From Candidatus Poribacteria bacterium (lineage in GTDB: Bacteria; Poribacteria; WGA-4E; WGA-3G), in contig JAGWBV010000003.1 in the NCBI GenBank assembly GCA_021295715.1, forward strand, positions 19,400-83,399: a stretch of DNA of 64,000 bases. Reading direction: 5' to 3'. The position numbers and the translations under genes are program-made. This document shows positions 7,252-60,245 of the stretch, one piece after another. Every line of letters starts with the position of its first letter. The stretch's first letter is position 1. Under the pieces are notes generated by a model. That model did not search any database, had not been told where the DNA came from, and saw nothing but the letters and a program-made list of their open reading frames with translations.

Positions 7252-7403
7252 GCCTGCAACAATCCGCAGAAATCCGCAGAAACGCCCAAGCAAAAACCTC
7301 AAGCAAAAACACGCAGGCGGATATAAGAGAGACCCGCAAGCGTTTAAAGGTATGTTGTTCCTCCGCAAGGTAAAATTAAGAACCCGCAAGGTAAAATTAA
7401 AAA
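7252..7403. repeat. Composite of dispersed intergenic repeat modules (GCCTGC...GCAGGC hairpin module, CCCAAGCAAAAAC module, three CCGCAAG copies)
   Basis: The same modules recur at 16091-16208, 35442-35705, 38151-38190, 41965-42460, 49261-49484 and 52662-52840. Local tandem duplications: AATCCGCAGA x2, CAAGCAAAAAC x2, CCGCAAGGTAAAATTAA x2. Confidence 0.8.
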
Positions 7404-8396
7404 TTGCAAAACTACGATTTAGAGGCGATAAATGCCCGCATCCAAGCAGACAGTGGGCTTATACAGCAGATTCTCACAGAGACAGGAAAAGTCATCGTCG
7501 GACAAAGTGCGCTGTTAGAGGGGTTAGTGATTGGATTGCTCTGCAACGGGCATATTCTACTTGAAGGGGTACCCGGCCTCGCGAAGACGACCGCTGTGAG
7601 TGCTCTTGCGCAGACGATAGACGCTTCTTTCAATCGCCTTCAGTTTACACCCGATCTGCTCCCCGCCGACCTCGTTGGGACCCTTATCTACGATCAACAA
7701 AAAGGGGATTTTTACACGAAAAAGGGACCCATTTTTGCCAACATTATCCTCGCAGATGAGATAAATCGCGCACCCGCCAAAGTGCAAAGTGCCTTACTTG
7801 AAGCGATGCAGGAACGGCAGGTAACAATCGGTGGGACGACTTATCCGCTTGACGATCCGTTTCTCGTTTTGGCGACGCAAAATCCGATTGAGCACGAAGG
7901 CACCTATCCGCTCCCCGAAGCACAAGTGGATAGATTTATGCTCAAGATTAAGGTTAACTACCCTTCACATGGAGAGGAATTGCAAATTCTCCGACGCATG
8001 ACGACCGAAGAAATCTCAACGATTCAACCGGTAATTTCTCCGGAAGATATTCTCCGATTCCGAGAGGCGGTCCGCAGCATCTATATGGCAGAGCAGTTGG
8101 AGAGTTATATTGTCGATTTGGTGTGTGCGACGCGCGCACCAGAAGCGTATCGATTGGATGAACTCAGCACATTCATTGAATACGGTGCTTCGCCGCGCGC
8201 GACCATTTTTCTGGCGTTTGCTGCGAGAGCACGGGCGTTCCTTTCTCAACGCGGTTACGTTACGCCTGAAGACATCCATACAGTCGGCATGGATGTCCTG
8301 AGACACAGGGTCATCATCAGTTACGAAGCAGAGGCGGAGGGGCGCGATGTCGAGAGTATTATTTCGCAGGTATTCGCGAAGATTGAAGTGCCTTGA
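7404..8396 (+). CDS. MoxR family AAA+ ATPase
   Basis: Walker A in LLEGVPGLAKT, FTPDLLPADLVG, ILADEINRAPAKVQSALLEAMQERQVT; about 330 aa. It has a TTG start directly abutting the 20-nt repeat end. Confidence 0.9.
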   Translation: MQNYDLEAINARIQADSGLIQQILTETGKVIVGQSALLEGLVIGLLCNGHILLEGVPGLAKTTAVSALAQTIDASFNRLQFTPDLLPADLVGTLIYDQQKGDFYTKKGPIFANIILADEINRAPAKVQSALLEAMQERQVTIGGTTYPLDDPFLVLATQNPIEHEGTYPLPEAQVDRFMLKIKVNYPSHGEELQILRRMTTEEISTIQPVISPEDILRFREAVRSIYMAEQLESYIVDLVCATRAPEAYRLDELSTFIEYGASPRATIFLAFAARARAFLSQRGYVTPEDIHTVGMDVLRHRVIISYEAEAEGRDVESIISQVFAKIEVP

Positions 8397-8400
8397 ACGT

Positions 8401-9660
8401 CTATTCCTCTGTCTGTCCTGCTACAGCCGATGCCCGTGCACCTACGCCGAGGACTGCTAAGAACCCTTCTGAATCGGCATGGTCAAAGTCACCAATCGCC
8501 TCCATAGAGGCAGTCTCTTCGGAATAGAGCGAATGCGGTGCTCCACCTGCGGCATAGAACGCGACATTCCCTTTGTAGAGTGCAACTGTAATGCTCCCAC
8601 TCGCTAAGTTAGTGAGCGGTCCAATAGAAGATAACAGCGCTTGTGTCGCCGCATCGAACCAGTAACCCTGATATACCTGCTCCGCAATCGTGGCGGCGAC
8701 CCCATCAAAGTGTCGGCGTGCGCGTCTATCCAAAATCAGTTGCAGTAGATATTCGTAACACTTCCCAAGCAATTCCATCCCCGGAGATTCATAAACACCA
8801 CGACTCTTAATCCCGACAAACCGGTTTTCAACGGTATGGATGCCGATGCCGACACCATTTCGTCCACCAATACGATTTGCCTCTAATAGACTCTGAAGGG
8901 GTGTAACGGGACTTCCGTTAACCTCAACAGGTGTTCCGCGGGCAAAGATGACCGTAAAGTGCTCTATGTCATCAGGTGCGTCTTTTGGATGGACTCCCAT
9001 ACCGGGGATAATAAAGCCTGCTGGTGTTTTCAAAGATTCGAGGCGTCCGGCTTCATGCGTGAGTCCCAGCAGATTTGCGTCGGTTGAGTAGGGTTTCTCG
9101 TGTGTCGCAGTAATCGGTAGGTTATGTGCTTGGCAGAAGTCTATCATCTCTTTCCTGCCGCCGAACACTGTGAGGAAGTTCGGATCTCGCCACGGGGCAT
9201 AGACAGCGAAATGTGGATTGAGCATATTGGTGGCGAGTTGAAATCGCACCTGATCGTTGCCTCTACCCGTCGCACCGTGTGTTAAGATGGAAATGCCGCG
9301 TTTTTCCATCTCCGGCAGGAGTGCTTTCACGGTGACATGCCTCGCGATGCCAGTCGTATTCCAATATCCGCCTTCATACATGGCTTGGCACTGGACGAGT
9401 TGGATACCCGCCTCTGCGAGTGCGTCCTTCGCGTCAACCATAATCGCATCTTCGGCACCGCATGCCAACATTCGTTCCCGGATTTCCGAAACGTCCCGTT
9501 CGTCAGGTTGTCCGAGGTCTGCCGTAAAACAGACGACCTTAACCCCGTTATCGACCAACCATTTAGTGATGGTACAACTATCTAAGCCGCCCGAAACAGC
9601 GGCACCCACCGTTTTTCCTTTTAATGCATCAATGTTCAAAAGCAATCTCCAAGGTATCAT
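8401..9660 (-). CDS. argG: Argininosuccinate synthase
   Basis: AVSGGLDSC PP-loop motif, THGATGRGNDQVRF, GIGIHTVENRFVGIKSRGVYE; 419 aa. It converges on moxR with a 4-nt gap. Confidence 0.95.
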   Translation of the reverse strand: MIPWRLLLNIDALKGKTVGAAVSGGLDSCTITKWLVDNGVKVVCFTADLGQPDERDVSEIRERMLACGAEDAIMVDAKDALAEAGIQLVQCQAMYEGGYWNTTGIARHVTVKALLPEMEKRGISILTHGATGRGNDQVRFQLATNMLNPHFAVYAPWRDPNFLTVFGGRKEMIDFCQAHNLPITATHEKPYSTDANLLGLTHEAGRLESLKTPAGFIIPGMGVHPKDAPDDIEHFTVIFARGTPVEVNGSPVTPLQSLLEANRIGGRNGVGIGIHTVENRFVGIKSRGVYESPGMELLGKCYEYLLQLILDRRARRHFDGVAATIAEQVYQGYWFDAATQALLSSIGPLTNLASGSITVALYKGNVAFYAAGGAPHSLYSEETASMEAIGDFDHADSEGFLAVLGVGARASAVAGQTEE

Positions 9661-9728
9661 CTATTAAGTTATGACGGAATTATACCACTTTTTGGTGCAG
9701 CTTGCAAATCAATATTGAGACACTAAAA

Positions 9729-9757
9729 AAAAATATATTTGACAATTTATCCAGTTT
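9729..9757 (+). promoter_or_regulatory. sigma70-type promoter candidate for the 9956..12982 gene
   Basis: TTGACA (9729-9734), 17-nt spacer, CATAAT (9752-9757). Implies a leader of about 190 nt. Confidence 0.5.
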
Positions 9758-9955
9758 ATAGCATAATAATTCAAACGGTGCGGTGGCACTTACTCCATCC
9801 CGAGCAACGACTCTGAGAGGTAGAAGATAGCGAGACCTTTCCGCCTCACCTTGTTGCAAATGGCGTTAGGTTCGCAATTTTCACACGATTCTCTCAAGTC
9901 GTTTCTAAGGTTCATAAAAACCCGAGAACATCCATTTCTATGGAGATTTCCCCGC

Positions 9956-12900
9956 ATGGAATCTGTCAAGGATATTATCCAACAGTGCCATGAACAGCGA
10001 CGAAAGGAACTGCAGCAGCGGGAGACAATCGTCTCACCCACGTTGCACGGTGAGCACCCTTACCACTATATTGTTTATTGTGCACGTCGATATCCGTTGC
10101 TTTTGCATGACCTTGAACAGGCAAATATTTCGTTTATGCCGATTGGACAGGCACCGGAATTCGATCGAGGCCCAGTGTATTGTGGCGGCTCGCGTCTCTT
10201 AAGACGACAAGGCACACTCAACTGGGAGCCGAGACGATGGTTTTCGTCGTGGGGGATTCAGGTCTATACAGGAACACCATCTGCGCGCGACGGAGCGAAT
10301 TGGCATGACATCGAGTTCACCTACAGAGCGATCCGCGATGCCCCTGATGCCGTTGTTGCATGTCTGGACGCACTCATCAACGCTGTTATGAATCCGCTAC
10401 TCACCTTGCTCAAGGCTGGAGGCTTGCGATTTTCGTGCCGAGTGCCAGACTATCTTCACCCAAACACAACGGATGAGCAGCAGTATGTTCATAAGCATCT
10501 ACCTGACAAAGACCGCCATCGCGACTGCGATGTGTATGTTAGAATTATTGGGGATAAAGGCTTTACTCGCTGGGATGCCCGCTACGAGATTCTTAAGGGC
10601 AATCTATTAGACCCGCCCATCATTTCTAAAGATGTGCTCTTTGCGTTTCTCGATGTCTTTCGAGACCTGTTGCACGAACCCGCCCCGGCATTGGAATTAC
10701 ACAGGATAGATGAAACGATCGAGGATACACAGGATTTCGACGATTTTGCTGTCATAGAATCGTTAGAAATAGAGCAAGTTGTGAATGAGAATATCCTTGC
10801 AGTGCGACGCGGTGAGGTAAGTCCGATTGGAATCAGACGACCGAAACCTATCCTTGAAAAACTGGAACGCACTGGGGCTGAGGATGAGAGGAATCTCTTC
10901 GAAGGTGAGGAACGCATTCTTGGGATTATTACGGGTCCGATCAGCACGGAAAAGAAACGTGAGATCGAAGCGACGTTTCTAAATACGGCACCTCTATGGG
11001 TCAACGCTAATACCGCACATGATGCTGAAGAGGCAGAGCAATATTATGAAAGGCTGGGCGTTTCAGTAGAACGTTGGAAACCGAGAAACTATCGCTGGGA
11101 GCAGGCGAAGTGGACACCGATTGCTGAACGGATGCAGAATCCTTTTGCGCACCGGAACGTCTGCGAAGATGCCGAAAGATGTGATGCCTTAGAACAGAAA
11201 GGTGGTGATCCGAATAGGAGTATCTGCCCGAGTTGTCCAGCTTATGACGCGTGTCAAGTGCGCGGGTATCTTTCTCAATTCGAGACGCTCAAGGAGAAGC
11301 AGGTCATTGTATCTGATATTCCGAACCTCTTTCTGGATCAGCGGTATGCGGCGTTTGTTGATGCGTTGATTATTCCCGATAGGGTCTGTGTTATAAATGA
11401 TTCTGAATCCCATCCTGCCAAGCTCTTTTCAGAGCATCATTTGTCAATCGAAATTCTTGAAGGATGGCTCATTAATTGGAGCGGTGCGGCGTTAGGTCAA
11501 TTCGCGAAAACAATGTTGAACGCTATTCGGATTACAGACAGTCAACATGGTGATATTGCGAAGCGGACTCGCACTGTTGTTCAGGCATTTGAAGGGTTAG
11601 AAGATAGCATTGTTCAGCAGATGTGTGAAGTAAATTATACATCTAAAGATGGCAGCAGCTTAGCAATAGATATTGATAGTGCGATCGAGTTTGGGATTTT
11701 GGATATATCGACCTCAGAAAACATAGCGCAGACCCCAAATGTGTATCGCGACCCGGAGTGGACGTTATGGCATCAGTTGAAGGCATTCTTTGCGCATTAC
11801 ACGCGCGACATGGATGCTCCAATGTTTGTCGAGGACGGGATTTTGCGGTTCTGGTTACCGCCACGAATTCATCAAGAGGTTCAGAAACTTGTGTTCATAT
11901 CACCAACGTTCGCGGGAGATTGTTTCAAAGAAGTGTTTCCTGAAGAGACCGTTTCGGTCAGATGGGTTGAATCGCAGGAGACATCGCTTTCAGGGAATAA
12001 GTCTTTTCAGCTGCGGAGTGCGCCTCATATCTCCTATGCAATCGCAAACTACGAGGTTAATTGGGATGTGTTTGGCCTTTCTGAAATTGCGAGTCGCTTT
12101 TTTCGCGGTATCTATCAAGAAATGAAGCGGCATCCGGATTGCAATCATGTTGTTATTTCGAGCTCAAGCACAGTGGTGATGTTGAAAAATGTTTTTGATA
12201 AGATTATCAGCTACCACGATCTCATCAGAGACACCCCGGCACGCCCTGAGGATTTGCGATCCACTTTTGAGGCTGCTGACGTTTACTACGACCGCATCAA
12301 GGCTCTACAATCCATCTTTGAAGCTGCTGATGTTGTCTGGATCGTTGGCACGCCCTATTGGCCCCCAAAATTCATCTGGGAACAAGCGAAAATATTGTTT
12401 GGAAACCAAGAACAACCGTTAAATTATAACTTGACTGTGAACCCTTATCAATTTGAAGATGAACGGATACAAGAACTCTACGAACAGAATGCTGTAGGGA
12501 CATTGACACAAATTATCCGTATCGCTGGATTCAATGAGACATCGGATAAAACGCTAATTCTCAACACGGCTTTGCGGGTACCCGCTATCACTGACGCACC
12601 AGAGACGGAATTGTTCGATTGGGAAGACTTGGAGATTGCTGGTGGGTTGGACAAACTTTCAGAGACGATTCGGATACGTGCAGGGTACGAGGCAGAATAC
12701 GCAAACATGGATGCGTCTTGGAGCCGAAAACGCGTTGAATATTTGCTTGGGGTTTCCAAGGCACAAGCAAACCGTATCTTGATGAGATTGAGGGGCAGTA
12801 AACTCGAGCGAATTCCATTCCATGTGCAGATTTTAGATTTGCTTTCGGATGGAGAGAAAACAACATCCGAAATCCTTGAATCAATTCAGGGGAATCCGGG

Positions 12901-12982
12901 TTCCATTAAAAACGAACTCACCCATCTTGTGGAAATGGGTGAGATTGTGAGGATCCGGCGCGGGGTTTATGCGTTGGCATAG
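9956..12982 (+). CDS. Large orphan protein (about 1,008 aa): PrimPol/AEP-like N-terminal region (tentative), Cys cluster, C-terminal HTH plus winged-HTH
   Basis: Long uninterrupted ORF. GGAGA lies 9 nt upstream of ATG 9956 (listed start is TTG 9851). Motif order is SFMPIGQ / WGIQVYTG / WHDIEF / KAGGLRFSCRVP / CDVYVRIIGDKGF. Cys cluster C-x5-C-x14-C-x2-C-x5-C is at nt 11162-11253. C-terminus has GVSKAQANRILMRL and EMGEIVRIRRGVYALA. No Walker A motif seen. Confidence 0.8.
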   Translation: MESVKDIIQQCHEQRRKELQQRETIVSPTLHGEHPYHYIVYCARRYPLLLHDLEQANISFMPIGQAPEFDRGPVYCGGSRLLRRQGTLNWEPRRWFSSWGIQVYTGTPSARDGANWHDIEFTYRAIRDAPDAVVACLDALINAVMNPLLTLLKAGGLRFSCRVPDYLHPNTTDEQQYVHKHLPDKDRHRDCDVYVRIIGDKGFTRWDARYEILKGNLLDPPIISKDVLFAFLDVFRDLLHEPAPALELHRIDETIEDTQDFDDFAVIESLEIEQVVNENILAVRRGEVSPIGIRRPKPILEKLERTGAEDERNLFEGEERILGIITGPISTEKKREIEATFLNTAPLWVNANTAHDAEEAEQYYERLGVSVERWKPRNYRWEQAKWTPIAERMQNPFAHRNVCEDAERCDALEQKGGDPNRSICPSCPAYDACQVRGYLSQFETLKEKQVIVSDIPNLFLDQRYAAFVDALIIPDRVCVINDSESHPAKLFSEHHLSIEILEGWLINWSGAALGQFAKTMLNAIRITDSQHGDIAKRTRTVVQAFEGLEDSIVQQMCEVNYTSKDGSSLAIDIDSAIEFGILDISTSENIAQTPNVYRDPEWTLWHQLKAFFAHYTRDMDAPMFVEDGILRFWLPPRIHQEVQKLVFISPTFAGDCFKEVFPEETVSVRWVESQETSLSGNKSFQLRSAPHISYAIANYEVNWDVFGLSEIASRFFRGIYQEMKRHPDCNHVVISSSSTVVMLKNVFDKIISYHDLIRDTPARPEDLRSTFEAADVYYDRIKALQSIFEAADVVWIVGTPYWPPKFIWEQAKILFGNQEQPLNYNLTVNPYQFEDERIQELYEQNAVGTLTQIIRIAGFNETSDKTLILNTALRVPAITDAPETELFDWEDLEIAGGLDKLSETIRIRAGYEAEYANMDASWSRKRVEYLLGVSKAQANRILMRLRGSKLERIPFHVQILDLLSDGEKTTSEILESIQGNPGSIKNELTHLVEMGEIVRIRRGVYALA

Positions 12983-13049
12983 GCAAGTGTCTCCCCTTTA
13001 ATTAAAAACGCATTTTTTGCGCGAAATTCATAAAAAAATAAGATTTTTT

Positions 13050-13084
13050 ATGCCAAAATTGTATTTTTTATACAATTTTGGCAT
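13050..13084. repeat. Perfect 15-bp inverted repeat (operator-, origin- or terminator-like)
   Basis: ATGCCAAAATTGTAT (13050-13064), TTTTT loop, ATACAATTTTGGCAT (13070-13084), in an AT-rich spacer 68 nt after the stop of the large gene. Confidence 0.85.
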
Positions 13085-13090
13085 TGTTTC

Positions 13091-13119
13091 TTGCAAAACT
13101 GAATCAATCTATGTATAAT
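13091..13119 (+). promoter_or_regulatory. Near-consensus sigma70 promoter with no ORF behind it
   Basis: TTGCAA (13091-13096), 17-nt spacer, TATAAT (13114-13119). The predicted start falls at the first arm of the 13125-13172 hairpin. Confidence 0.5.
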
Positions 13120-13124
13120 ATAAT

Positions 13125-13172
13125 ATGACTGAAATCCATTCATACATCATACGTCATCATGATTTCAGTCAT
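13125..13172 (+). repeat. 12-bp perfect inverted repeat / 5' hairpin of a putative non-coding transcript
   Basis: ATGACTGAAATC (13125-13136) and GATTTCAGTCAT (13161-13172), separated by 24 nt. Confidence 0.8.
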
Positions 13173-13468
13173 ACTCCAAATTAAATAGGAAATTGGTAGA
13201 GCGCAGAGGGAACAGTTCAGCAGGCTTTCTGTCTGCTGCTCGCCAACTCCTTTTCCAAGCCATTCCGGCGAACATACTCCCGCATGCAGGACAGATTGGA
13301 ATATTTGCTGCCTCCATATTATACATGGTAGATCTTAGAATTACTTATACACTCTCCACTGGTGCGGTTGGATGAAAGACCCTACCGCACGCTGCTTGCT
13401 TCGCCTCAAGAGTCCAGCGAAATATTAACTTATTTTTTTAATCCACCATCAATGCAGCCAAAAAATCC

Positions 13469-13497
13469 TTGACATCCGTTCCAAAACAGCATACAAT
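13469..13497 (+). promoter_or_regulatory. sigma70-type promoter candidate for the 13537 operon
   Basis: TTGACA (13469-13474), 17-nt spacer, TACAAT (13492-13497), about 40 nt upstream of ATG 13537 (GGAGG RBS). Confidence 0.55.
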
Positions 13498-13536
13498 GCA
13501 ACCTCAAGCAATGTATGTTTTATACGGAGGTTTCTC

Positions 13537-14169
13537 ATGCCGACAATCGAAAAAGTTTTTGACTCCCCAGGACCACAACCTAACGGAATGCAAGCCACCG
13601 AAGAAGGGCTCTGGATTCTCGACCAACAGACCAACGAAGTGCACCTCGTCTCTTATGATGGCGTTGTAAAAAAGACACTCGACACCGGTTCCGACAGAGG
13701 AAGCGGTATCACGGATACAGGGAATACCCTCTGGCTGGCGTCTACCTACAGTTGCGAAATCCTCTCAGCGGATCCGGAAAGCGGTAAAACACTCGCTTCT
13801 TATGACACACCGGGTGCAGGTCAGACGGGTGCCCACGGCTTAGAGTGGCGCGACAATAAACTCTGGTTGGCGGTCCCGCCATCCGCCACCATTTATCAGG
13901 TCGATGTTGAAGATGGTTTCAAAGTCATTCACACGCTCCCTGCTCCCGGCGATCGACCACACGGTATCGCATGGATAGGCGACGATCTCTGGTGCGTTGA
14001 GACGAACCACCGAGCGATCTTCCATCTGAATCCAGAAGATGGTAGCCATCTGAACAAAATTGAGATACCTGAACCGCATCCTGAACCGCATGGAATGACT
14101 TACTGGGATGGGTCTTTCTGGTATTGCGATGCACATACAACTGCGGTGTGCCGTGTAGCATTATCCTGA
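13537..14169 (+). CDS. Beta-propeller repeat protein (glutaminyl-cyclase/NHL-like; function unknown)
   Basis: Repeated ...G..W(L/I/C)... blades (GLWILD, TLWLAS, KLWLAV, DLWCVE, SFWYCD). GGAGG RBS present. No signal peptide seen. Confidence 0.7.
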   Translation: MPTIEKVFDSPGPQPNGMQATEEGLWILDQQTNEVHLVSYDGVVKKTLDTGSDRGSGITDTGNTLWLASTYSCEILSADPESGKTLASYDTPGAGQTGAHGLEWRDNKLWLAVPPSATIYQVDVEDGFKVIHTLPAPGDRPHGIAWIGDDLWCVETNHRAIFHLNPEDGSHLNKIEIPEPHPEPHGMTYWDGSFWYCDAHTTAVCRVALS

Positions 14170-15020: not shown

Positions 15021-16097
15021 GTGAAAGCTACAACTGCCGTCATTTCTCCGCAAGGTATAATTAAAAATATTCTTATTCCACGGGGCGCGTTCATCATGGG
15101 TACCGATATTGAAGCGTTCTATGGCACTGCTTTAGCCAATTCGGAGCATGCCAAACTCGATGAAGCACCAATGCATGTCCGTTTTCTCGAAGCATATCTG
15201 ATTGAACAGTATCCCGTAACAAATACCGAGTATGCGGCTTTCGTGCAGGCAACGAATCACCCAGCACCGCCACATTGGAAAAATGCAACCTTCTCACCTG
15301 AAGAGGCAAACCTTCCGGTTGTTCATGTAAGTTGGCATGATAGCAACGCGTATGCACAATGGGCAGGCAAGCGGTTACCAACAGAAGCAGAATGGGAGAA
15401 AGCCTGTCGTGGTCCTGATGGACGGATTTATCCGTGGGGCAATATCTTCGTTTCTGATGAATCTGAATCCACAGAAACTCCAGCAGAAACTTTACAGATT
15501 CTGACGGCACACCTCACACCTGTAGGAGTTCGTCCTGCGACAATAAGTCCCTACGGTGTCGGAGACGCGGCAGGAAATGTTTGGGAATGGACTGCCGATT
15601 GGTATCAACCATATTCCAATCCAAAACCGCTTAAACAAGGAATAGATGATAAACATAAAGCCATGCGTGGCGGGTCATGGTTAGAAGTACGTGATGGCAC
15701 TGCGGAACGCTATTTTCGGTGCGCCAATCGTTTACATGCACCACCAGACTATGCCGCTGGGAATATCGGTTTTCGGTGTGTGCGTGAGGTGCTACCCGGA
15801 CAAGTCGAATCGGTGCATGTTCCTGCGGACCCCCTTGCTGACTATGTAAAGGAACGGAAGTTAAGTAACCTACATCTCCTTCAAAAACGGGCGCAAAAGA
15901 ACAGTCTCAAAGATACCTTCATCGCTGTCCTACTCATTGGAGGCGCGATCTACGGTATTGTAGAGAAGCCTGAATTGGTATTGGGTGCTGTGACAGCGGG
16001 TATTATCGGGGTCGGATTTCTTTTTAGTGCCAGCGTGAATTTCTGGCGGAGATGGCGTGCAGTAGCACGAGCCAAACAGGTAGAGTCCGATTTTTAA
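15021..16097 (+). CDS. Formylglycine-generating enzyme (SUMF1/EgtB/PvdO) family protein with C-terminal TM helices
   Basis: Motifs YPVTNTEYAAFV, VVHVSWHDSNAYAQWAGKRLPTEAEWEKACRG, GNVWEWTADWY, MRGGSW and NIGFRCV. The hydrophobic tail is IAVLLIGGAIYGIV...GIIGVGFLFSA. GTG start. The stop codon lies inside a repeat end. Confidence 0.9.
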   Translation: MKATTAVISPQGIIKNILIPRGAFIMGTDIEAFYGTALANSEHAKLDEAPMHVRFLEAYLIEQYPVTNTEYAAFVQATNHPAPPHWKNATFSPEEANLPVVHVSWHDSNAYAQWAGKRLPTEAEWEKACRGPDGRIYPWGNIFVSDESESTETPAETLQILTAHLTPVGVRPATISPYGVGDAAGNVWEWTADWYQPYSNPKPLKQGIDDKHKAMRGGSWLEVRDGTAERYFRCANRLHAPPDYAAGNIGFRCVREVLPGQVESVHVPADPLADYVKERKLSNLHLLQKRAQKNSLKDTFIAVLLIGGAIYGIVEKPELVLGAVTAGIIGVGFLFSASVNFWRRWRAVARAKQVESDF

Positions 16098-16208
16098 TTT
16101 TACCTTGGGAGTAATCAAAGACGTTGGAACTCTTGTGGGCGTGCCGCCTATCTGAAGAAATACCCAAGCAAAAACACCTCCATTTTATTACGGACTACGG
16201 GTTTGAAC
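16091..16208. repeat. Dispersed repeat modules (TTTTTAATTTTACCTTGGG end, CCCAAGCAAAAAC, CCTCCATTTTATTACGG)
   Basis: Same module set as 7252-7403, 35442-35705 and 49261-49484. The end overlaps the TAA stop of the FGE-family gene. Confidence 0.75.
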
Positions 16209-33992: not shown

Positions 33993-35441
33993 CTATGATC
34001 TGCGATAAAAAATCCGTATCGGTGTGCCGTGAAATCCGAATTCCTTCCGAATACTGTTGACAAGGTACGCATCATAGGGCTGCTGGACGCGATGGATATT
34101 CCGTCCGAAGATTAAGAAAGTAGGGGGTTTAGTTTCTACCTGTGTAATATATTTAAGTGCGGGACGTACACCTTTAACCCGCGGCGGTGGATGTGCACTA
34201 CGCAATTCTAAAAGCAATTCGTTGAGTGCCGGTGTAGGGATGTGTGTACAATACTCACGGTATACCTCAAGAGCAGTCGTTAATACTTGGGTAACGCGTT
34301 GTCCAGTTAGCGCCGAAGTAAAGACACGTGGAACATAGCCGAGTTGCGGAAGTTGAGCATCTATCGCATCCATAAACGTTGGATGTGTTGTATTGTCCTT
34401 ATCAACCAGATCCCACTTGTTCATGACTAAAACGGAGGCTTTCCCTTGTCGTTCGATGAAATTAGCGATAGTCTTATCCTGTTGCGCTACCTCTTGGGTT
34501 ACATCCAGCACAAGTACAGCGATGTCGCTCTGGCGAATACTGTGTATCGCGCGTTGTACGGTTGCGGATTCAAGCTCATCTTTGATAGTGGATTTACGCC
34601 GCATTCCTGCCGTATCAACGACCTCAAAAGGGATATTGTCGTGAACGATTCGAATATTCACTGCATCGCGCGTGGTACCGGGTCGGTCATCAACAATCAT
34701 TCTATCTTCACCTAACAAACTGTTGATAAACGAAGATTTTCCGACATTCGGTCTGCCAACAATAGCGATTTTCATTGTGGCAGGCGCGTCGTGAACAGTT
34801 TCGTCGATCTCTGGAAGGACTTCAACAACGCGGTCAAGGAGTTCCCGAATCCCATCGTTTTGGACGCACGATGTCCACATCAGCTCTGTCAATCCGAGTG
34901 CGTAAAACTCGGCGGCTTCATTGTGAAATCTGTCGCTGTCTACCTTATTGACGACGAGGAAGATAGGTTTACCAGCGATTCTGAGTTTATCAACGACAAC
35001 TCTATCGTGTGGCATGATACCAACTCGTGCGTCAACGACAAAAAGGACAAGACTCGCTTCAGCCAAGGCAGCATCCACCTGTGCTTGAACATTATCAATG
35101 AGTCGGTCATCGGGATCAACGTCCAAACCGCCGGTGTCAACGATAGTAAAAGCTCGGTCTGCCCATTCTACGTCAGCGTAGTTCCTGTCGCGCGTCACGC
35201 CCGGAGTATCATGAACGACAGCGTATCGGCGATCAGCTTTCAGTCGCCGACTTTCAACTTTATAGTCTTCAGTTTCCAGTTTTAGGTCATCAGTTAAAGA
35301 GGACTCCGATTCAACAGGATCATTTCTTAACCGATCACCACGCTTCTGCCGGCGGCTATTTCCAGTGATTCGATTGAAAAGTGACGATTTCCCGACGTTC
35401 GGTCTGCCGACGATCGCAACAATGGGTCGCACGGTTTCCAT
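33993..35441 (-). CDS. der: Ribosome-biogenesis GTPase Der (EngA) with an insertion in GTPase domain 1
   Basis: Two P-loops (GRPNVGKSSLFNR, GRPNVGKSSFINS), DTAG/DTGG, NKVD/NKWD, and a KH-like C-terminus. A charged insert of about 45 aa lies between NRITG and AVVHDTPGVTRD. Confidence 0.95.
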   Translation of the reverse strand: METVRPIVAIVGRPNVGKSSLFNRITGNSRRQKRGDRLRNDPVESESSLTDDLKLETEDYKVESRRLKADRRYAVVHDTPGVTRDRNYADVEWADRAFTIVDTGGLDVDPDDRLIDNVQAQVDAALAEASLVLFVVDARVGIMPHDRVVVDKLRIAGKPIFLVVNKVDSDRFHNEAAEFYALGLTELMWTSCVQNDGIRELLDRVVEVLPEIDETVHDAPATMKIAIVGRPNVGKSSFINSLLGEDRMIVDDRPGTTRDAVNIRIVHDNIPFEVVDTAGMRRKSTIKDELESATVQRAIHSIRQSDIAVLVLDVTQEVAQQDKTIANFIERQGKASVLVMNKWDLVDKDNTTHPTFMDAIDAQLPQLGYVPRVFTSALTGQRVTQVLTTALEVYREYCTHIPTPALNELLLELRSAHPPPRVKGVRPALKYITQVETKPPTFLIFGRNIHRVQQPYDAYLVNSIRKEFGFHGTPIRIFYRRS

Positions 35442-35705
35442 ATTTTTAATGTTCCTTGCGGTTCGGTGAGGTGAGTTTCAGGTTTAGAGTGCGTTTCCGT
35501 ATACCTGCGGAAACGCCCAAGCAAACCCCTCCACTACGTTACGGACTATACGATTTTGGACTACACAAAGAACCTGCGCGTAATAAAATGGAGCGCAGTC
35601 CAGGAACCCCGACATTAAAAGCCTTGCGGTTCGTTCAGGTCGGTTTTACGACGGAAGTCGTTTTCGTATATCCAGCCCGGCGCGATGCTTGGGTTTACCT
35701 GTTCT
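35442..35705. repeat. Two tandem diverged copies of the MITE-like repeat
   Basis: ATTTTTAATGTTCCTTGCGGTTCGGTGAGGTGAGTTTCAGGTTT...CCGTATA...CCCAAGCAAAC..., then a second ATTAAAAGCCTTGCGGTTCGTTCAGGTCGG... It aligns with the reverse complement of 49261-49484. Confidence 0.8.
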
Positions 35706-39924: not shown

Positions 39925-41964
39925 TTAAAGTTCTGCATCAACTCGAATCGATAACTCTTCAAGCTGTGCGTCTGTTACAACAGAGGGAGCGTGTGTGAGC
40001 GGACAAAGTCCCTGTTGCGATTTCGGGAACGCAATTACCTCTCGGATGTTCTCCTCGTTTCGCATCAGCATGACCATCCGATCTAAGCCTGGTGCAATGC
40101 CAGCATGCGGCGGTGTACCGTACGACAACGCATCTATGAAATAACCGAACCGACTTTCAACCTCCTCCGGTGTAATATCCAGAACGTCAAAAACCTTCTG
40201 TTGGATATCCCACTGGTGGATTCTGACACTCCCGCTACAGATTTCATACCCGTTGCACACGAGATCGTAGTGTTGGCTCTGAACCTTGCCCGGATCTGTG
40301 TCTAACAACGGTAATGTCTCCTCTGTCCCTCCGGTGAAGAGATGATGGAAAGGTTCGTAACGATTCTCATCCTCGTTCCACTCAAACAGCGGGTAATCAA
40401 CGATCCACAGAAAATTGTACTGGGTTTCGTCAATGAGGTTCAGTTTTTTCCCGAGATGGAGGCGGAGATTCCCGAGGGCATCGGCGACGACTTTCGGCTT
40501 GTCAGCAACAAAGAACATGATGTCGCCCGGTTTCGCGCCCGTTCTTTCTTGTGCTGTTTCCAGTTGCTCCGTTGTGAAGAACTTAACGATCCCCGACGAG
40601 AACCCTTCTGTCGTGACCTTAACCCATGCCAATCCTTTTGCCCGGTACGTAGCGACGAATTGGGTCAGGTCATCGATGTCTTTGCGTGAAAAGTCCGCAC
40701 CTCCTCGGGCGGCAATGGCTTTGACCTGCCCACCTGCTGACAAGGTGCGCGTAAATACCTGAAACTCACAATCCGCCATAACATCTGAGAGATCGGTGAG
40801 TTCCATACCGAACCGCGTGTCCGGTTTGTCGTTCCCGAACCGCGCCATTGACTCGTGATACGGGAGCCGTAGGAAAGGCGTTTGGACCGGAATACCACCC
40901 GCATCCTCAAATATGCGTTTCATCAACCCCTCGGTCACCTCAAGCACATCGTCGACGTCGGCGAATGACATTTCAATATCCAGCTGCGTGAATTCCAACT
41001 GTCTGTCAGAACGGGTATCCTCATCACGGAAACATCGCGCTATCTGGAAATATCGATCAACGCCGCTCATCATCAAAATCTGTTTAAACTGCTGCGGTGA
41101 TTGTGGAAGCGCATAGAATCTGCCGGGGTAATGACGACTCGGAACGAGTACATCGCGTGCCCCTTCAGGTGTGCTGTTCATCAAAATAGGAGTCTCAATT
41201 TCAAGGAAACCCTGCTCGTTCATATAGTTACGTGCTGCGAGTGCTGCCTTATGCCGCATTGCTAAAGTTTTCTGCATCTCAGGACGACGCAGATCAATAA
41301 ATCGGTAGCGCATCCGAATGTCTTCCGCTACGTCAATATCGTCTTCAACTGGAAACGGTGGCGTTTTAGCAGTATTCAGAATATTCAGAGAGTCCACAGC
41401 GAGTTCAATCTCACCCGTATCGAGTTCTGGGTTGACTGTGCCTTGATAAATGCTGAGACCTTCCTCTCCCCCCATATCTTCAATGACAATATGATATGTC
41501 CGATTATTTTCGAGATCGGTGAGCAGCCATCGCGTGCCAGCGACGCGGGTCACCACTTCAATCTCCCCGGAGAGCGTGTACTTCGTATCGACCTCTGCAA
41601 ACAGGGATCGGAACGCTGGAGAGAGGGTGCCATCGTCGAGTTCGGTTTGGTACGCAGCATCCGCATGGAAGAGCAATTCGCCCGGATCACGTTCGCGAAC
41701 GGTGCCACTGACGTTCAACACATATTCGCTTCTAATACTATCTGCGAGGGCGTGTGCTTTTTCGTCAATCTGCGGATCAAAGACTACTTGTGTGATGCCT
41801 GTTCTATCACGTAAATCAACAAAGATGACACCACCATGATCTCGACGGCGGTTGACCCAACCGTTGAGTTGCGCAGTCGTACCAACCTCGGTTAAGCGCA
41901 GGTCCCCACAATAATGGGTTCGTTTTAGACAAGGCGATGTGGCTTCTTGGGTTTCTTGAGACAT
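39925..41964 (-). CDS. aspS: Aspartate--tRNA ligase with an 80-aa insertion in the anticodon-binding OB domain
   Basis: Motifs GWVNRRRDHGGVIFVDLRDRTG, FYALPQSPQQFKQ, FQIARCFRDED and GTPPHAGIAPGLDR. Start is taken at ATG 41964 (MSQETQ...), which abuts the repeat end. The listed start 42042 lies inside the repeat. Confidence 0.95.
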   Translation of the reverse strand: MSQETQEATSPCLKRTHYCGDLRLTEVGTTAQLNGWVNRRRDHGGVIFVDLRDRTGITQVVFDPQIDEKAHALADSIRSEYVLNVSGTVRERDPGELLFHADAAYQTELDDGTLSPAFRSLFAEVDTKYTLSGEIEVVTRVAGTRWLLTDLENNRTYHIVIEDMGGEEGLSIYQGTVNPELDTGEIELAVDSLNILNTAKTPPFPVEDDIDVAEDIRMRYRFIDLRRPEMQKTLAMRHKAALAARNYMNEQGFLEIETPILMNSTPEGARDVLVPSRHYPGRFYALPQSPQQFKQILMMSGVDRYFQIARCFRDEDTRSDRQLEFTQLDIEMSFADVDDVLEVTEGLMKRIFEDAGGIPVQTPFLRLPYHESMARFGNDKPDTRFGMELTDLSDVMADCEFQVFTRTLSAGGQVKAIAARGGADFSRKDIDDLTQFVATYRAKGLAWVKVTTEGFSSGIVKFFTTEQLETAQERTGAKPGDIMFFVADKPKVVADALGNLRLHLGKKLNLIDETQYNFLWIVDYPLFEWNEDENRYEPFHHLFTGGTEETLPLLDTDPGKVQSQHYDLVCNGYEICSGSVRIHQWDIQQKVFDVLDITPEEVESRFGYFIDALSYGTPPHAGIAPGLDRMVMLMRNEENIREVIAFPKSQQGLCPLTHAPSVVTDAQLEELSIRVDAEL

Positions 41965-42460
41965 TTTTCTATATTTCCTTGCGGTTCGGTCAAGTGGGTT
42001 AGCACTTTGACGCTTATTTTCGTAGACCGCCCTCCATTTCATTACGGGCTTGCTCGTCCTACGAAATTCAGGTTCTTAATTATTACTTGCGGTTCGGTTT
42101 TTTTAATTGTTCCTTGCGGTTCGGTCAGATGGGTTTTGAAGAATAACGCGCTTTTCCGTATATCCGCCCTCCTAGTGCTGTGTCACTCCTAAAATGATGG
42201 ATGTGGGCAGCCACAAGGGACTGCCCCTACAGGGAAAATCCCTTCAACACACAGCACTAGCGCCGGTCTCCTATAGAGGCTTGCGGAACAATGTTACAGG
42301 CTACGGCTTCTCATTCTATCCAAGACAGCAGCCTGCAACAACGGCACAGGCGGATATAAGAGGAAATCCTCAATAAACAAAACACCCCATTTCTCGCCTC
42401 GCGAACATTTAAAAATTCCTTGCGGTTCGGTCAAGACGGATATTTTGTATCATTAAACAC
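41965..42460. repeat. Repeat-dense intergenic region with four same-strand copies of (C/A)CTTGCGGTTCGGT plus other modules
   Basis: Core copies are at 41977-41990, 42085-42098, 42112-42125 and 42427-42440. A GGAGGGCGG module (reverse) is at 42026-42052 and 42155-42175. GCCTGCAACAA...CAGGCGGATATAAGAGG is at 42330-42365. A GGGCAG/CTGCCC hairpin is at 42205-42226. Confidence 0.8.
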
Positions 42461-46781: not shown

Positions 46782-47930
<1,149 letters not shown>

Positions 47931-49260: not shown

Positions 49261-49484
49261 TTTTTAATTATTTCTTGCGGAGTAACAACGGGCGTTTGGA
49301 CTTTGACGTGCGTTGATCAAATCCGCCTACGTGTTTTTGCTTGGGTGTTTCTGCGTATTGTTGCAGGCTGCTGTCTTGGGTAAACCAAAGCACATAGCCC
49401 GTAATATAATGGAGGGCGGATATACGGAAAGGAACGTCAAACCTGAAACCGACCTGACCGAACCGTAAGGAAAATTACAAAAAC
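49261..49484. mobile_element. Complete MITE-like element (about 224 bp) with imperfect 20-22-bp terminal inverted repeats
   Basis: The left end is TTTTTAATTATTTCTTGCGG (49261-49280) and the right end is CCGTAAGGAAAATTACAAAAAC (49463-49484, approximately the reverse complement). The interior carries all dispersed modules (GCCTGCAACAA hairpin, GTTTTTGCTTGGG, GCCCGTAATATAATGGAGGGCGGATATACGGAAA, AAACCTGAAACCGACCTGACCGAACCG). There is no coding capacity. Confidence 0.7.
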
Positions 49485-52376: not shown

Positions 52377-52661
52377 TTAACAACAACAGGGGGTTTCGCT
52401 GCACTTCGGGCAACCCTCTGCGTAGATTTTCGCGGCATCCTCAAGAGAGATACCGAGCAGGCTTGCTAATGTAGCGAGCCATGCAAAAACATCGGCAAAC
52501 TCCTCATGGAGCCGCGTTATGTCTTGTGGTTGCTTGCGGATCTCTTTCGCTAACTCGCCCACCTCTTCAACGAACCATGTAAAGGTTAGTGGCACGCCAC
52601 GCTCAGCATCGCGTGTGTAGTAGATATCTTCAATCTGTTTCTGAAACGCTTCAATTCTCAT
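52377..52661 (-). CDS. MazG-like nucleotide pyrophosphohydrolase domain protein with Cys-rich tail
   Basis: FVEEVGELAKEI...EEFADVFAWLATLASLLGISLEDA (EExxE...ExxD helices), with a C-terminal GCPKCSETPCCC. The start ATG abuts the 20-nt repeat end. Confidence 0.8.
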   Translation of the reverse strand: MRIEAFQKQIEDIYYTRDAERGVPLTFTWFVEEVGELAKEIRKQPQDITRLHEEFADVFAWLATLASLLGISLEDAAKIYAEGCPKCSETPCCC

Positions 52662-52840
52662 TTTTTAATTTTACCTTGCGGTTAAGTGCCACGGTTTCGG
52701 GGCTTCACGTGCTTCCGTATAGAGTCGCCTGCGCCGTTGTTGCAGGCTTCGTGTTCGTTACAAACCCGCAAATCCGTTGCGGTTTGACCAAAAACCTACT
52801 CATAATGGAATGCAGAGCAGTCCAGAGGCACACAGATTAA
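52662..52840. repeat. MITE-like repeat copy or fragments
   Basis: TTTTTAATTTTACCTTGCGG end, CCGTATAGAGTCGCCTGCGCCGTTGTTGCAGGC hairpin module, CCGCAAATCCGTTGCGG hairpin, and CATAATGGAATGCAGAGCAGTCC module (compare 35585-35610). Confidence 0.75.
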
Positions 52841-60096: not shown

Positions 60097-60136
60097 CTTT
60101 TAATTACACCTTGCGGATTTTAATTATACCTTGCGG
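60097..60136. repeat. Two tandem copies of the 20-nt MITE end abutting the start codon of the DUF2126-type gene
   Basis: CTTTTAATTACACCTTGCGG (60097-60116) and ATTTTAATTATACCTTGCGG (60117-60136). Confidence 0.85.
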
Positions 60137-60245
60137 TAAGAATGGCAATCGGCTATCCCCAAGGTAAATTTAACATTCCCCGTCAAATCCCCATGCTTTA
60201 GCTTGCGGGATGTAGACGGCATATAGGTTTACCATTAAAAAACAC

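Follow-up and report, generated by a model that had tools for sequence, protein, structure and literature searches.

A chromosomal Poribacteria gene beside argG encodes a likely domesticated, motor-less relative of mobile-element primase-helicases

What kind of protein is encoded by the very large gene that stands alone between argG and an unrelated operon in a 64,000 bp stretch of the Candidatus Poribacteria chromosome (the window), and what could such a protein do? The gene (coding sequence 9956–12982, + strand; protein P0001, 1,008 amino acids plus stop codon) had been described in the original prediction as an orphan, with an N-terminal third resembling archaeo-eukaryotic primases (AEPs) of the PrimPol type, a cysteine cluster of CX2CX5C spacing, a C-terminal helix-turn-helix (HTH) followed by a winged HTH (wHTH), and no NTPase motif. 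All of the listed sequence features are present in the window. The analysis makes it fairly probable that the gene descends from the primase-helicase of a mobile element and has been domesticated into a motor-less, DNA-binding form, and its product, judged from the sequence, probably works by binding DNA rather than by catalysis. The cysteine cluster and the missing NTPase motif are one fact, together pointing to a putative iron-sulfur (Fe-S) helicase with a dismantled motor.

The largest part of the protein, from about residue 311 to residue 925 (10886–12730, + strand), was modelled as a catalytically degenerate superfamily 2 (SF2) helicase fold of the XPD/Rad3/DinG type. The full-length AlphaFold2 model was confident for residues ~310–1000, and comparison of the core with the PDB by Foldseek gave the XPD of T. 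acidophilum (Thermoplasma) as the best match (E = 8.8e-11). The top 14 matches, with E-values from 8.8e-11 to 5e-6, were all XPD, Rad3, DinG or CasDinG structures, and included further XPD entries, TFIIH-bound Rad3/XPD from yeast and human, E. coli DinG and the CRISPR-associated DinG; in the XPD-family matches about 700 aligned columns spanned the whole target. UvrB, SecA and Hna came next at ~1e-5, about five orders of magnitude behind XPD. None of the family members was matched by curated XPD, Rad3 or DinG sequence models. The Pfam matches of the relatives were weak ones to DEAD and ResIII, and profiles of motif-intact relatives retrieved Prp43, reverse gyrase, DHX36, Cas3 and UvrB from the PDB with E-values of 0.003–0.2. 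The XPD assignment of the core rests on the modelled fold, because the profiles of intact relatives reach only generic SF2 helicases.

Motif states were read from an alignment of the family to a hidden Markov model of the core, together with pairwise comparison. The Walker A position (motif I; ILGIITGPISTEKKRE, residues 321–336, 10916–10963, + strand) aligns to GLRADTGTGK[TNDS] of intact relatives and is degenerate, with TGPISTEKK in the window protein against RADTGTGK[T/N/D/S] in intact distant relatives; the window protein contains no [AG]x4GK[ST], and no GK[ST] anywhere. The Walker B position (motif II; VCVINDSES, residues 477–485, 11384–11410, + strand) has DE replaced by ND, VINDSES standing against hhhDE/DD (e.g. 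LLDE) in intact relatives. Motif VI (LTQIIRIAGFNE, 12503–12538, + strand) has lost the arginine fingers of QxxGRxxR and reads QIIRIAGF, against QAxGRARLxR (e.g. QAIGRARL) in intact relatives. The degenerate TGPISTEKK-type Walker A was found in the window protein and in 72/72 members of its clade, and all 72 members of this clade (73–100% identity), as well as the 60% clade, share the same degenerate ATPase motifs. The lack of a Walker A motif, rightly recorded in the original prediction, is thus a secondary loss, because the core is XPD/DinG-like and GxGK, DE and QxxGRxxR stand at the corresponding positions of the relatives; the XPD/DinG-like SF2 core covering residues ~311–925 had gone unrecognised in the original prediction.

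Many apparently intact members of the family, e.g. P0141, P0147, P0163 and P0177, have a Walker A of GxGKN or GxGKD where GKT/S would be expected. Magnesium is normally ligated by the hydroxyl of the residue that follows the Walker A lysine, so that GKN and GKD are unusual for an SF2 helicase.

The cysteine cluster (C403-x5-C409-x14-C424-x2-C427-x5-C433, residues 403–433, 11162–11254, + strand) is located in helicase domain 1 between motif I (residues 321–336) and motif II (residues 477–485), where the model has a small helical subdomain (residues 389–446). C403, C424, C427 and C433 are invariant throughout the family, the most distant members included, with the spacing C-x20-C-x2-C-x5-C. In the XPD/DinG family a 4Fe-4S domain is placed between motifs I and II, and in the modelled core the cluster would be the putative Fe-S insertion of the helicase. 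The short internal duplication that had also been noticed in the core is a tandem one, TFEAADVYY (12263–12289) and IFEAADVVW (12314–12340; together 12263–12340, + strand). It is a clade-specific insertion of ~20 residues that only the closest orthologues share, P0070 and every other relative lacking it, and it falls in a low-confidence loop of the model (predicted local distance difference test, pLDDT, <50 at residues 758–776); the duplication is real but trivial.

Residues 1–250 (9956–10705, + strand) were modelled as a divergent AEP/PrimPol-fold domain. In the first AlphaFold2 model, made from a 20-sequence alignment, residues 1–310 were unfolded (pLDDT <50); the N-terminal alignment was rebuilt from 41 diverse homologues, which gave a folded domain, with pLDDT 88.9 and a predicted template modelling score of 0.79 for residues 1–300. 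Foldseek comparison of this model with BFVD gave a best E-value of 8.9e-8 (phage Prim-Pol proteins) and 25 matches at E ≤1e-3, almost every named one being a primase, primase-polymerase or primase-helicase of a phage or giant virus. In the PDB the best 11 matches were all AEPs, with marginal statistics: the pRN1 primase came first (E = 3.3e-3, probability 0.99; a second pRN1 entry at E = 0.018), phage NrS-1 PrimPol and the LigD polymerase domain were among the other AEP matches, and CAPP ranked 13, 16 and 18. Curated AEP models (PF09250, PF08800 and others) in Pfam matched neither the window protein nor 24 diverse N-terminal domains, and searches of the PDB with the N-terminal profile and of Pfam with the 24 members gave nothing relevant beyond a chance match to a lincosamide nucleotidyltransferase motif. 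Alignment of the domain to the N-termini of BT4734-type relatives by hhalign was likewise not significant (E = 0.37). The model suggests, in sum, a very divergent AEP (PrimPol) fold that is visible by structure comparison only.

The AEP/PrimPol assignment and the motif order proposed in the original prediction are borne out by the fold matches and by conservation in 53 diverse N-terminal domains. SFMPIGQ at residue 59 and WGIQVYTG at residue 99 precede the acidic motif, with G100, T105 and G106 conserved among the 53 domains. AEP motif I (hhhDhD/E) is WHDIEF (residues 116–121, 10301–10318, + strand), located on model strand 114–121 and contributing D118 and E120, which are present in 70/70 and 68/70 members of the orthologue clade, respectively; the consensus across the family is DxD/E, with D in 33/53 and E in 12/53 diverse members at position 120. 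The motif II position lies within KAGGLRFSCRVP (residues 153–164, + strand), where GGLRFSCR (10418–10441, + strand) has Arg158 instead of His. R158 (within SGGLR) is nearly invariant in the family, His being found in 1 of 52–53 diverse representatives, and the sxH histidine of AEP motif II is absent from the window protein. This arginine does not exclude membership of the AEP superfamily; accepted AEP families include some with Arg/Lys or Gln for this His, and the DR0530-like AEP family has Arg/Lys in place of the motif II His (PMC5862659).

In the stretch CDVYVRIIGDKGF (residues 191–203, + strand), YVRIIGDKGF (10535–10564, + strand; family consensus YLEIFGxKGx) is the probable AEP motif III hairpin, with Arg at the acid position 196. 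The pattern, and a strand-turn-strand at residues 191–207, make position 196 the probable motif III acid; the motif III aspartate of PrimPols stands three residues ahead of the turn glycine. Position 196 is E in 35/39 paralogues, in 41/52 representatives and in 6/6 members of the 60% clade, and in the window (orthologue) clade the counts are E28, R14, K13, D7, H3, L2 and N2, the relaxation being confined to this dead clade. The clade that lost its ATPase motifs has therefore also released a probable catalytic residue of the primase. In WDARYEI (10571–10591, + strand; invariant W-D207-x-R209-Y), D207 is found in 52/53 and R209 in 53/53 diverse members; the invariant D207 could, from its conservation, substitute for the motif III metal ligand, and R209 is possibly the ‘motif IV’ arginine by comparison with PMC5862659.

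A disordered acidic linker (residues 251–310, 10706–10885, + strand) connects the N-terminal domain to the helicase core. Paralogues carry ~110–130 extra amino acids at the linker, after the primase domain, and the window clade is without this insertion; in relatives with a BT4734-type primase, PriCT-2 occupies the position of the segment. At the opposite end, residues 926–1008 (12731–12979, + strand) form the HTH (residues 932–945, GVSKAQANRILMRL) and the winged HTH (residues 955–1008), the latter terminating in GEIVRIRRGVYALA (residues 995–1008). This C-terminus, with the HTH and wHTH named in the original prediction, produced sub-threshold Pfam matches to AbiEi_4 (E = 5e-4; 20.5 bits against a cut-off of 25 bits) and HTH_5, matched ywnA/MarR-like PDB entries, and has helices at residues 924–993 in the model. 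Full-length searches of Pfam, NCBIfam, PADLOC, PHROGs and the PDB returned only the C-terminal wHTH, below threshold; PADLOC 2.0 gave only four weak AbiEi wHTH matches (E ~0.02) and no other defence-model match.

The gene is far from being an orphan. A word-index search returned 1,281 homologues, an exhaustive profile search 586 representatives at 50% identity (243 with E ≤1e-30), and a scan of one genome per species 354 genomic copies, the best 80 of which were all in metagenome-assembled genomes of Candidatus Poribacteria. There are several copies per Poribacteria genome and at least four or five on single chromosomes, e.g. loci L016, L046, L053 and L076 on OZ253447.1, and L029, L039, L055, L058 and L077 on CBDBPM010000002.1; the window has one family copy, with no paralogue within 64 kb. 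Only a minority of the paralogues retain all ATPase motifs. Clustering of the neighbours of 77 loci revealed no constant companion gene of the family; each paralogue has its own, mostly metabolic, synteny. The view that this architecture lies outside the described families was upheld, as the family is not described in the curated libraries Pfam, NCBIfam, PADLOC and PHROGs; the public names of orthologues are ‘hypothetical protein’ or, for one at NCBI, ‘AbiEi family antitoxin domain-containing protein’.

Tandem arrays of 2–4 paralogues were observed in other Poribacteria (L047, 2217–15226; L052, 67–14410; L058, 8001–17148; L060, 6999–14359; L066, 6930–14184). The arrays mix copies with intact motifs, degenerate copies, and shorter copies (~770–980 amino acids) without an alignable Walker A/cysteine region.

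Where the family came from is indicated by its distant members. Among 36 homologues without the window-type N-terminal domain, the PF08800 BT4734-like AEP was found in 15, PriCT-2 in 10 and DEAD in 5, and nearly all of the 36 terminate in an HTH, so that the family architecture is a primase, an optional PriCT-2, an XPD-like Fe-S helicase and an HTH. One of the intact members, P0230 (BT4734-like primase, PriCT-2, helicase core and HTH), is encoded on the 49,842-bp metagenomic contig ctg120102_637x_c (L092) together with ParA, a ribbon-helix-helix protein, Cro/CI-like HTH genes, several N6_N4 methylases and an integrase fragment. The ‘_637x_c’ in the contig name suggests 637-fold coverage and a circular molecule, and the contig probably represents a sponge symbiont's plasmid or phage-plasmid. 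P0302 is located on a 117-kb contig that also has transposases, a gene with a NADAR (DarT-associated) domain and, at the edge of the locus, the beginning of another family gene. P0165 has the architecture and length of the window protein, with intact GTGKT, LLDE and QAIGRARLVR, and is directly followed by RuvC, as are the family genes in L078, L079 and L080; with P0165 as query, no close relative was found among the species-representative genomes. In P0251 the window-type PrimPol-like domain is joined to a DUF3987 helicase, within a phage-like module with RuvC, thymidylate kinase and integrase. The longest contigs with BT4734-type members are ≤165 kb, as against the multi-megabase chromosomes that carry the window clade.

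In a neighbour-joining tree of the helicase core, the intact proteins form a grade, with the two primase types mixed among one another. The chromosomal Poribacteria paralogues are a derived clade with frequent motif loss stemming from this intact grade, and nested among them is a uniformly dead, monophyletic clade of proteins of ~1,000 amino acids, the window gene included.

Two further patterns were seen among the relatives. Different primase types sit on close helicase cores in P0230 with P0165, P0162 with P0142, and P0175 with P0158, and these sequences suggest that the N-terminal primase module was swapped repeatedly. A module of a primase-helicase and a RuvC-like resolvase also recurs on phage- or plasmid-like contigs of sponge metagenomes, the helicase being either XPD-like or a DUF3987 one placed after the window-type PrimPol-like domain (L078, 463–3950; L079, 7122–~10300; L080, 2332–~5650; L096, 1838–5619; L094, 10001–13873).

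The window gene itself is a settled chromosomal gene. In orthologous loci the left side is conserved with argG (26 of ~29 loci), MoxR, a sulfatase and a GATase1-like gene, and in most of them the right side with the Vgb-lyase, LplA and FGE operon. Neither integrase, att-like repeat nor any other element gene was found flanking the window gene. Intact ORFs (open reading frames) of ~1,007 amino acids were present in >70 genomes, over synonymous divergences up to saturation; the orthologue in L021 is split into two ORFs, which may be an assembly error. Pairwise ratios of nonsynonymous to synonymous substitution rates (dN/dS) between the window gene and 11 orthologues were 0.12–0.23 overall. By segment, the ratio was 0.12–0.19 in the primase-like domain, 0.10–0.24 in helicase domain 1 with the Fe-S region, 0.11–0.29 in the rest of the core, lowest in the HTH segment (0.03–0.16), and highest in the linker (0.28–0.62), the only relaxed segment. 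Purifying selection still acts on the four cysteines, D118/E120, R158, D207/R209 and the HTH. The outcome that was to refute the original prediction came about in half: profile searches gave no AEP match and the chromosomal synteny is conserved, but the fold is that of an AEP, and the family is neither a named nor a housekeeping one.

Horizontal acquisition of the gene was considered and ruled out, as its GC content (0.472), its GC content at third codon positions (0.477) and its codon usage are typical of the window genes and within their range.

As a domesticated and motor-less copy, the window protein would no longer hydrolyse ATP or translocate. The simplest mechanism would be ATP-independent DNA binding, because the winged HTH, the Fe-S scaffold and the primase shell appear to be preserved and because the HTH is a natural origin-recognition module. 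Selection would maintain all three parts, the winged HTH most strongly. The winged HTH may be the origin-recognition module of the ancestral replicase and so confer sequence-specific binding, and the frozen helicase cleft with its Fe-S domain may hold single-stranded or forked DNA. The role is most likely that of a DNA-bound regulator with chromosomal targets, or of a blocker occupying origin-like sites of related elements. The original prediction of a DNA-binding, possibly primase-derived protein is supported.

Several points weigh against this account. The cysteines may ligate zinc instead of an Fe-S cluster. The full-length model was made from a shallow alignment (20 sequences), the AEP relation is invisible to sequence profiles, with marginal structural support in the PDB (E = 3e-3 at best), and the assignment of motif III (E196) comes from a sequence pattern and not from coordinates. 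A catalytic or nucleotide-binding function may survive in the N-terminal domain, given the continued invariance of D118/E120, R158 and D207/R209. Scans of IMG/VR with two family alignments gave no viral contig with the helicase core, so that the link to mobile elements depends on the neighbouring genes seen in a few metagenomic contigs, and the neighbour-joining tree carries no support values.

The invariant N-terminal residues are the substance of a different reading, rather unlikely in our judgement, in which the protein is still an enzyme. Its PrimPol domain would prime or fill gaps, e.g. in damage tolerance or replication restart, using an acidic triad of D118, E120 and D207 and binding the nucleotide with R158 and R209, with the dead helicase reduced to a DNA clamp and targeting left to the wHTH. 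Strict conservation of D118, E120 (68/70), R158, D207 and R209 in the orthologue clade, the N-terminal dN/dS of 0.12–0.19, and the known Arg/Lys for motif II His in the DR0530-like AEP family all favour such activity; yet position 196, which is E in ~80–100% of the other groups, is free (R, K, L, H, N) in the window clade, and this clade is without the 110–130-residue post-primase segment where BT4734-type relatives have PriCT-2. We regard as unlikely the proposal that the argG-adjacent copy is an immunity factor, a dominant-negative decoy which recognises the origins of elements and blocks their replication. Poribacteria would then repeatedly have taken the primase-helicase from plasmid- or phage-like elements of their own and disarmed it, origins would be recognised through the winged HTH and the Fe-S helicase cleft, and the invariant Fe-S centre might act as a DNA or redox sensor. 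A decidedly unlikely alternative makes the window protein a non-catalytic subunit, the regulatory or targeting partner of ATPase-competent paralogues elsewhere in the genome: several paralogues do occur per genome, a minority with all motifs, and arrays L047, L052 and L058 mix intact and degenerate copies, but the gene is solitary, has a promoter and terminator of its own and no paralogue within 64 kb, and resembles XPD/DinG-type helicases, which are monomeric.

It is very unlikely that the gene encodes a single-gene defence protein against phages or plasmids, sensor and effector in one. The lineage-specific expansion and fast motif turnover are typical of conflict genes, and in orthologous loci TIR genes and a pair of ResIII helicase and N6 methylase make the spacer just downstream of the gene a hot spot; the gene itself, however, is constant while these neighbours vary, PADLOC matches only the wHTH, there is no nuclease, TIR or toxin domain, and the ATPase is dead. 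The notion of the initiator of an integrated, decaying element, raised in the original prediction, or of a pseudogene on its way out, is extremely improbable and had to be given up despite the ancestry from mobile-element replicases, the AT-rich flanks and the split orthologue in L021: the flanks are free of integrase, att-like repeat and other element genes, composition is native, synteny (~26/29 loci) and promoter are conserved, ORFs are full-length, and dN/dS is ~0.2. The chance is next to nil that the cysteine cluster represents an Fe-S nuclease or glycosylase module of the EndoIII/AddB/Cas4 type. The CX2CX5C spacing on which that comparison was built is indeed identical, but the cluster (residues 403–433) belongs to helicase domain 1 of an XPD-like fold, where it follows motif I and precedes motif II, and no nuclease or helix-hairpin-helix family was matched.

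The coding sequence lies in an ORF of 9851–12982 (+ strand) whose first ATG is at 9956. This ATG is, from sequence comparison, the true start, because all orthologues start with MESVKDIIQQCH and a conserved GGAGA (9942–9946) is located 9 nt upstream. The promoter and leader that had been proposed were recovered: a sigma-70-type TTGACA-17-CATAAT (9739–9767, + strand; score 11/12) is the best + strand promoter match upstream of the gene and is kept in 10/11 orthologous loci, and the predicted 5′ leader of ~188 nt (9768–9955, + strand; ~190 nt in the original prediction) contains GGAGA as the Shine-Dalgarno sequence. Scanning of the leader and spacers against Rfam gave no real match, and RNAalifold gave –12 kcal/mol with an unfavourable covariation term for the leader, so a riboswitch-like element is not indicated. 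Near the 5′ end of the leader, CUCCAU (9794–9799) could pair with AUGGAG (9940–9945), which overlaps the Shine-Dalgarno sequence; the pairing is retained in most orthologues via G-U changes alone, hence without real covariation. Downstream of the gene a terminator-like, perfect 15-bp hairpin is followed by a T-rich tail (13050–13084, + strand).

The left neighbour is argG (8401–9660, – strand), and the right neighbour is the unrelated operon starting at 13537 (+ strand). Both flanking spacers are AT-rich (GC 0.38–0.42 vs ~0.49 for genes) and have no copy of any of the 13 dispersed-repeat families of the window, exactly as had been claimed. The 554-bp spacer on the right (12983–13536) is empty in the window, and in orthologous loci its place is taken by genes that differ between loci, namely two TIR (CAP12-PCTIR) genes, an N6_N4 DNA methylase alongside a ResIII helicase, which together resemble restriction-modification, DUF433, and small ORFs of no known kind (L001, 13025–18400; downstream of the gene in L003, L008, L012, L016 and L019). 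The spacer looks like an integration hot spot for defence genes. Within it, a promoter-like TTGCAA-17-TATAAT (13091–13119) is followed by ~350 nt without an ORF and is overlapped by a 28-nt imperfect inverted repeat with arms at 13109–13136 and 13161–13188, the core of which is ATGACTGAAATC / GATTTCAGTCAT. On the left, argG has a divergent promoter (TTGCAA-17-TATAAT, 9707–9679, – strand), and between it and the promoter of the studied gene (region 9679–9720) lies a conserved palindrome, CAATATTG (9712–9719), which could be an argG operator. A dispersed intergenic repeat, TTTTTAATTnTnCCTTGCGG(TTCGGT) with reverse complement CCGCAAGGTAAAATTAAAAA, is present in many other spacers of the window (7358–7403, 15043–15067, 16091–16117, 35432–35478, 41955–42136, 42406–42442, 46782–46808, 49261–49287, 52652–52698 and 60117–60143). 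It is often directly 5′ of start codons, e.g. just before the gene starting at 7404, and its placement suggests that it may be a shared 5′ untranslated or promoter-proximal element of the source organism.

New here are the domain architecture, the disarmed and domesticated copy, and the lineage-specific expansion. An AEP-type primase joined to an XPD/DinG-like Fe-S helicase and an HTH is an undescribed architecture for a replication protein; the exchange of two unrelated-looking primase modules on close helicase cores adds to the catalogue of mobile-element replicases, and the N-terminal domain adds a very divergent PrimPol family beyond the reach of sequence profiles. The window protein would be a clean natural pseudo-helicase, in which the ATPase motifs are gone and the cysteine (putative Fe-S) ligands and the DNA-binding domain are kept under purifying selection, and which could reveal what the XPD-type scaffold and its Fe-S cluster do when immobile. 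The expansion is specific to uncultivated sponge symbionts, with several copies per genome, most of them disarmed. Such a pattern with many disarmed copies usually marks a conflict or regulatory system. The current labels ‘hypothetical’ and ‘AbiEi antitoxin domain-containing’ are uninformative or misleading, and the decoy proposal, if true, would mean a new, enzyme-free mode of defence made from a replication protein.

Among the known systems, the AbiEi antitoxins and MarR-ArsR wHTH proteins are close to the C-terminus of the window protein: its C-terminal 50 residues resemble the AbiEi_4 wHTH, but the match is sub-threshold, the wHTH is C-terminal in a protein of 1,008 amino acids without the AbiEi C-terminal domain, and the adjacent genes are argG and a Vgb-lyase-like gene, with no AbiEii toxin gene. 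The likeness to the DR0530-like AEP family of the Prim-Pol clade is in the basic residue that replaces the motif II His (PMC5862659), and the N-terminal domain studied here matches no Pfam AEP model. With XPD, Rad3 and DinG (CasDinG included) the family has in common the overall fold of the core, the four-cysteine domain in helicase domain 1 between motifs I and II and, in intact relatives, GxGK, DE and QxxGRxxR. It differs in the compact C-x20-C-x2-C-x5-C spacing, in the fused primase and HTH, in the lack of any sequence-profile match, and in the GKN/GKD of many intact relatives in place of GKT/S; the window protein, moreover, is without all the ATPase motifs. Eukaryotic XPD retains these motifs and uses them in repair, whereas those of the window protein are gone. 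A functional analogy is nevertheless offered by TFIIH, where, according to PMC4182028, the helicase activity of XPD is dispensable for the transcription role, which would likewise be a use of the XPD fold without its motor. The window protein is fold-level kin of the AEP and XPD families and not a member of either, because the sequence-level tests of both parent families and the tests for catalytic motifs fail.

A literature search returned no described fusion of an AEP with an XPD-type helicase and nothing specific on a primase/helicase expansion in Poribacteria; PMC5862659 reports only the fusion of AEPs to domains with a remote resemblance to SF2 helicases, the nearest being UL9-like phage proteins. 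The plasmid and phage primase-helicases (pRN1 ORF904, NrS-1, BT4734-like/VirE-type and PrimPol-DUF3987 proteins) have the same order of AEP, helicase and winged-helix origin-binding domain. The N-terminal fold is shared with pRN1 and NrS-1, and relatives of the studied gene carry PF08800/PriCT-2 in mobile-element contexts. In contrast, the helicase studied here is an XPD-like SF2 enzyme type with a putative Fe-S domain and not SF3 (D5-like), SF4 or DUF3987, and the window copy is chromosomal and catalytically dead. With these differences, it is to primase-helicase replication initiators such as pRN1 ORF904 and the phage PrimPol-helicases that the window protein would owe both its descent and its way of working.

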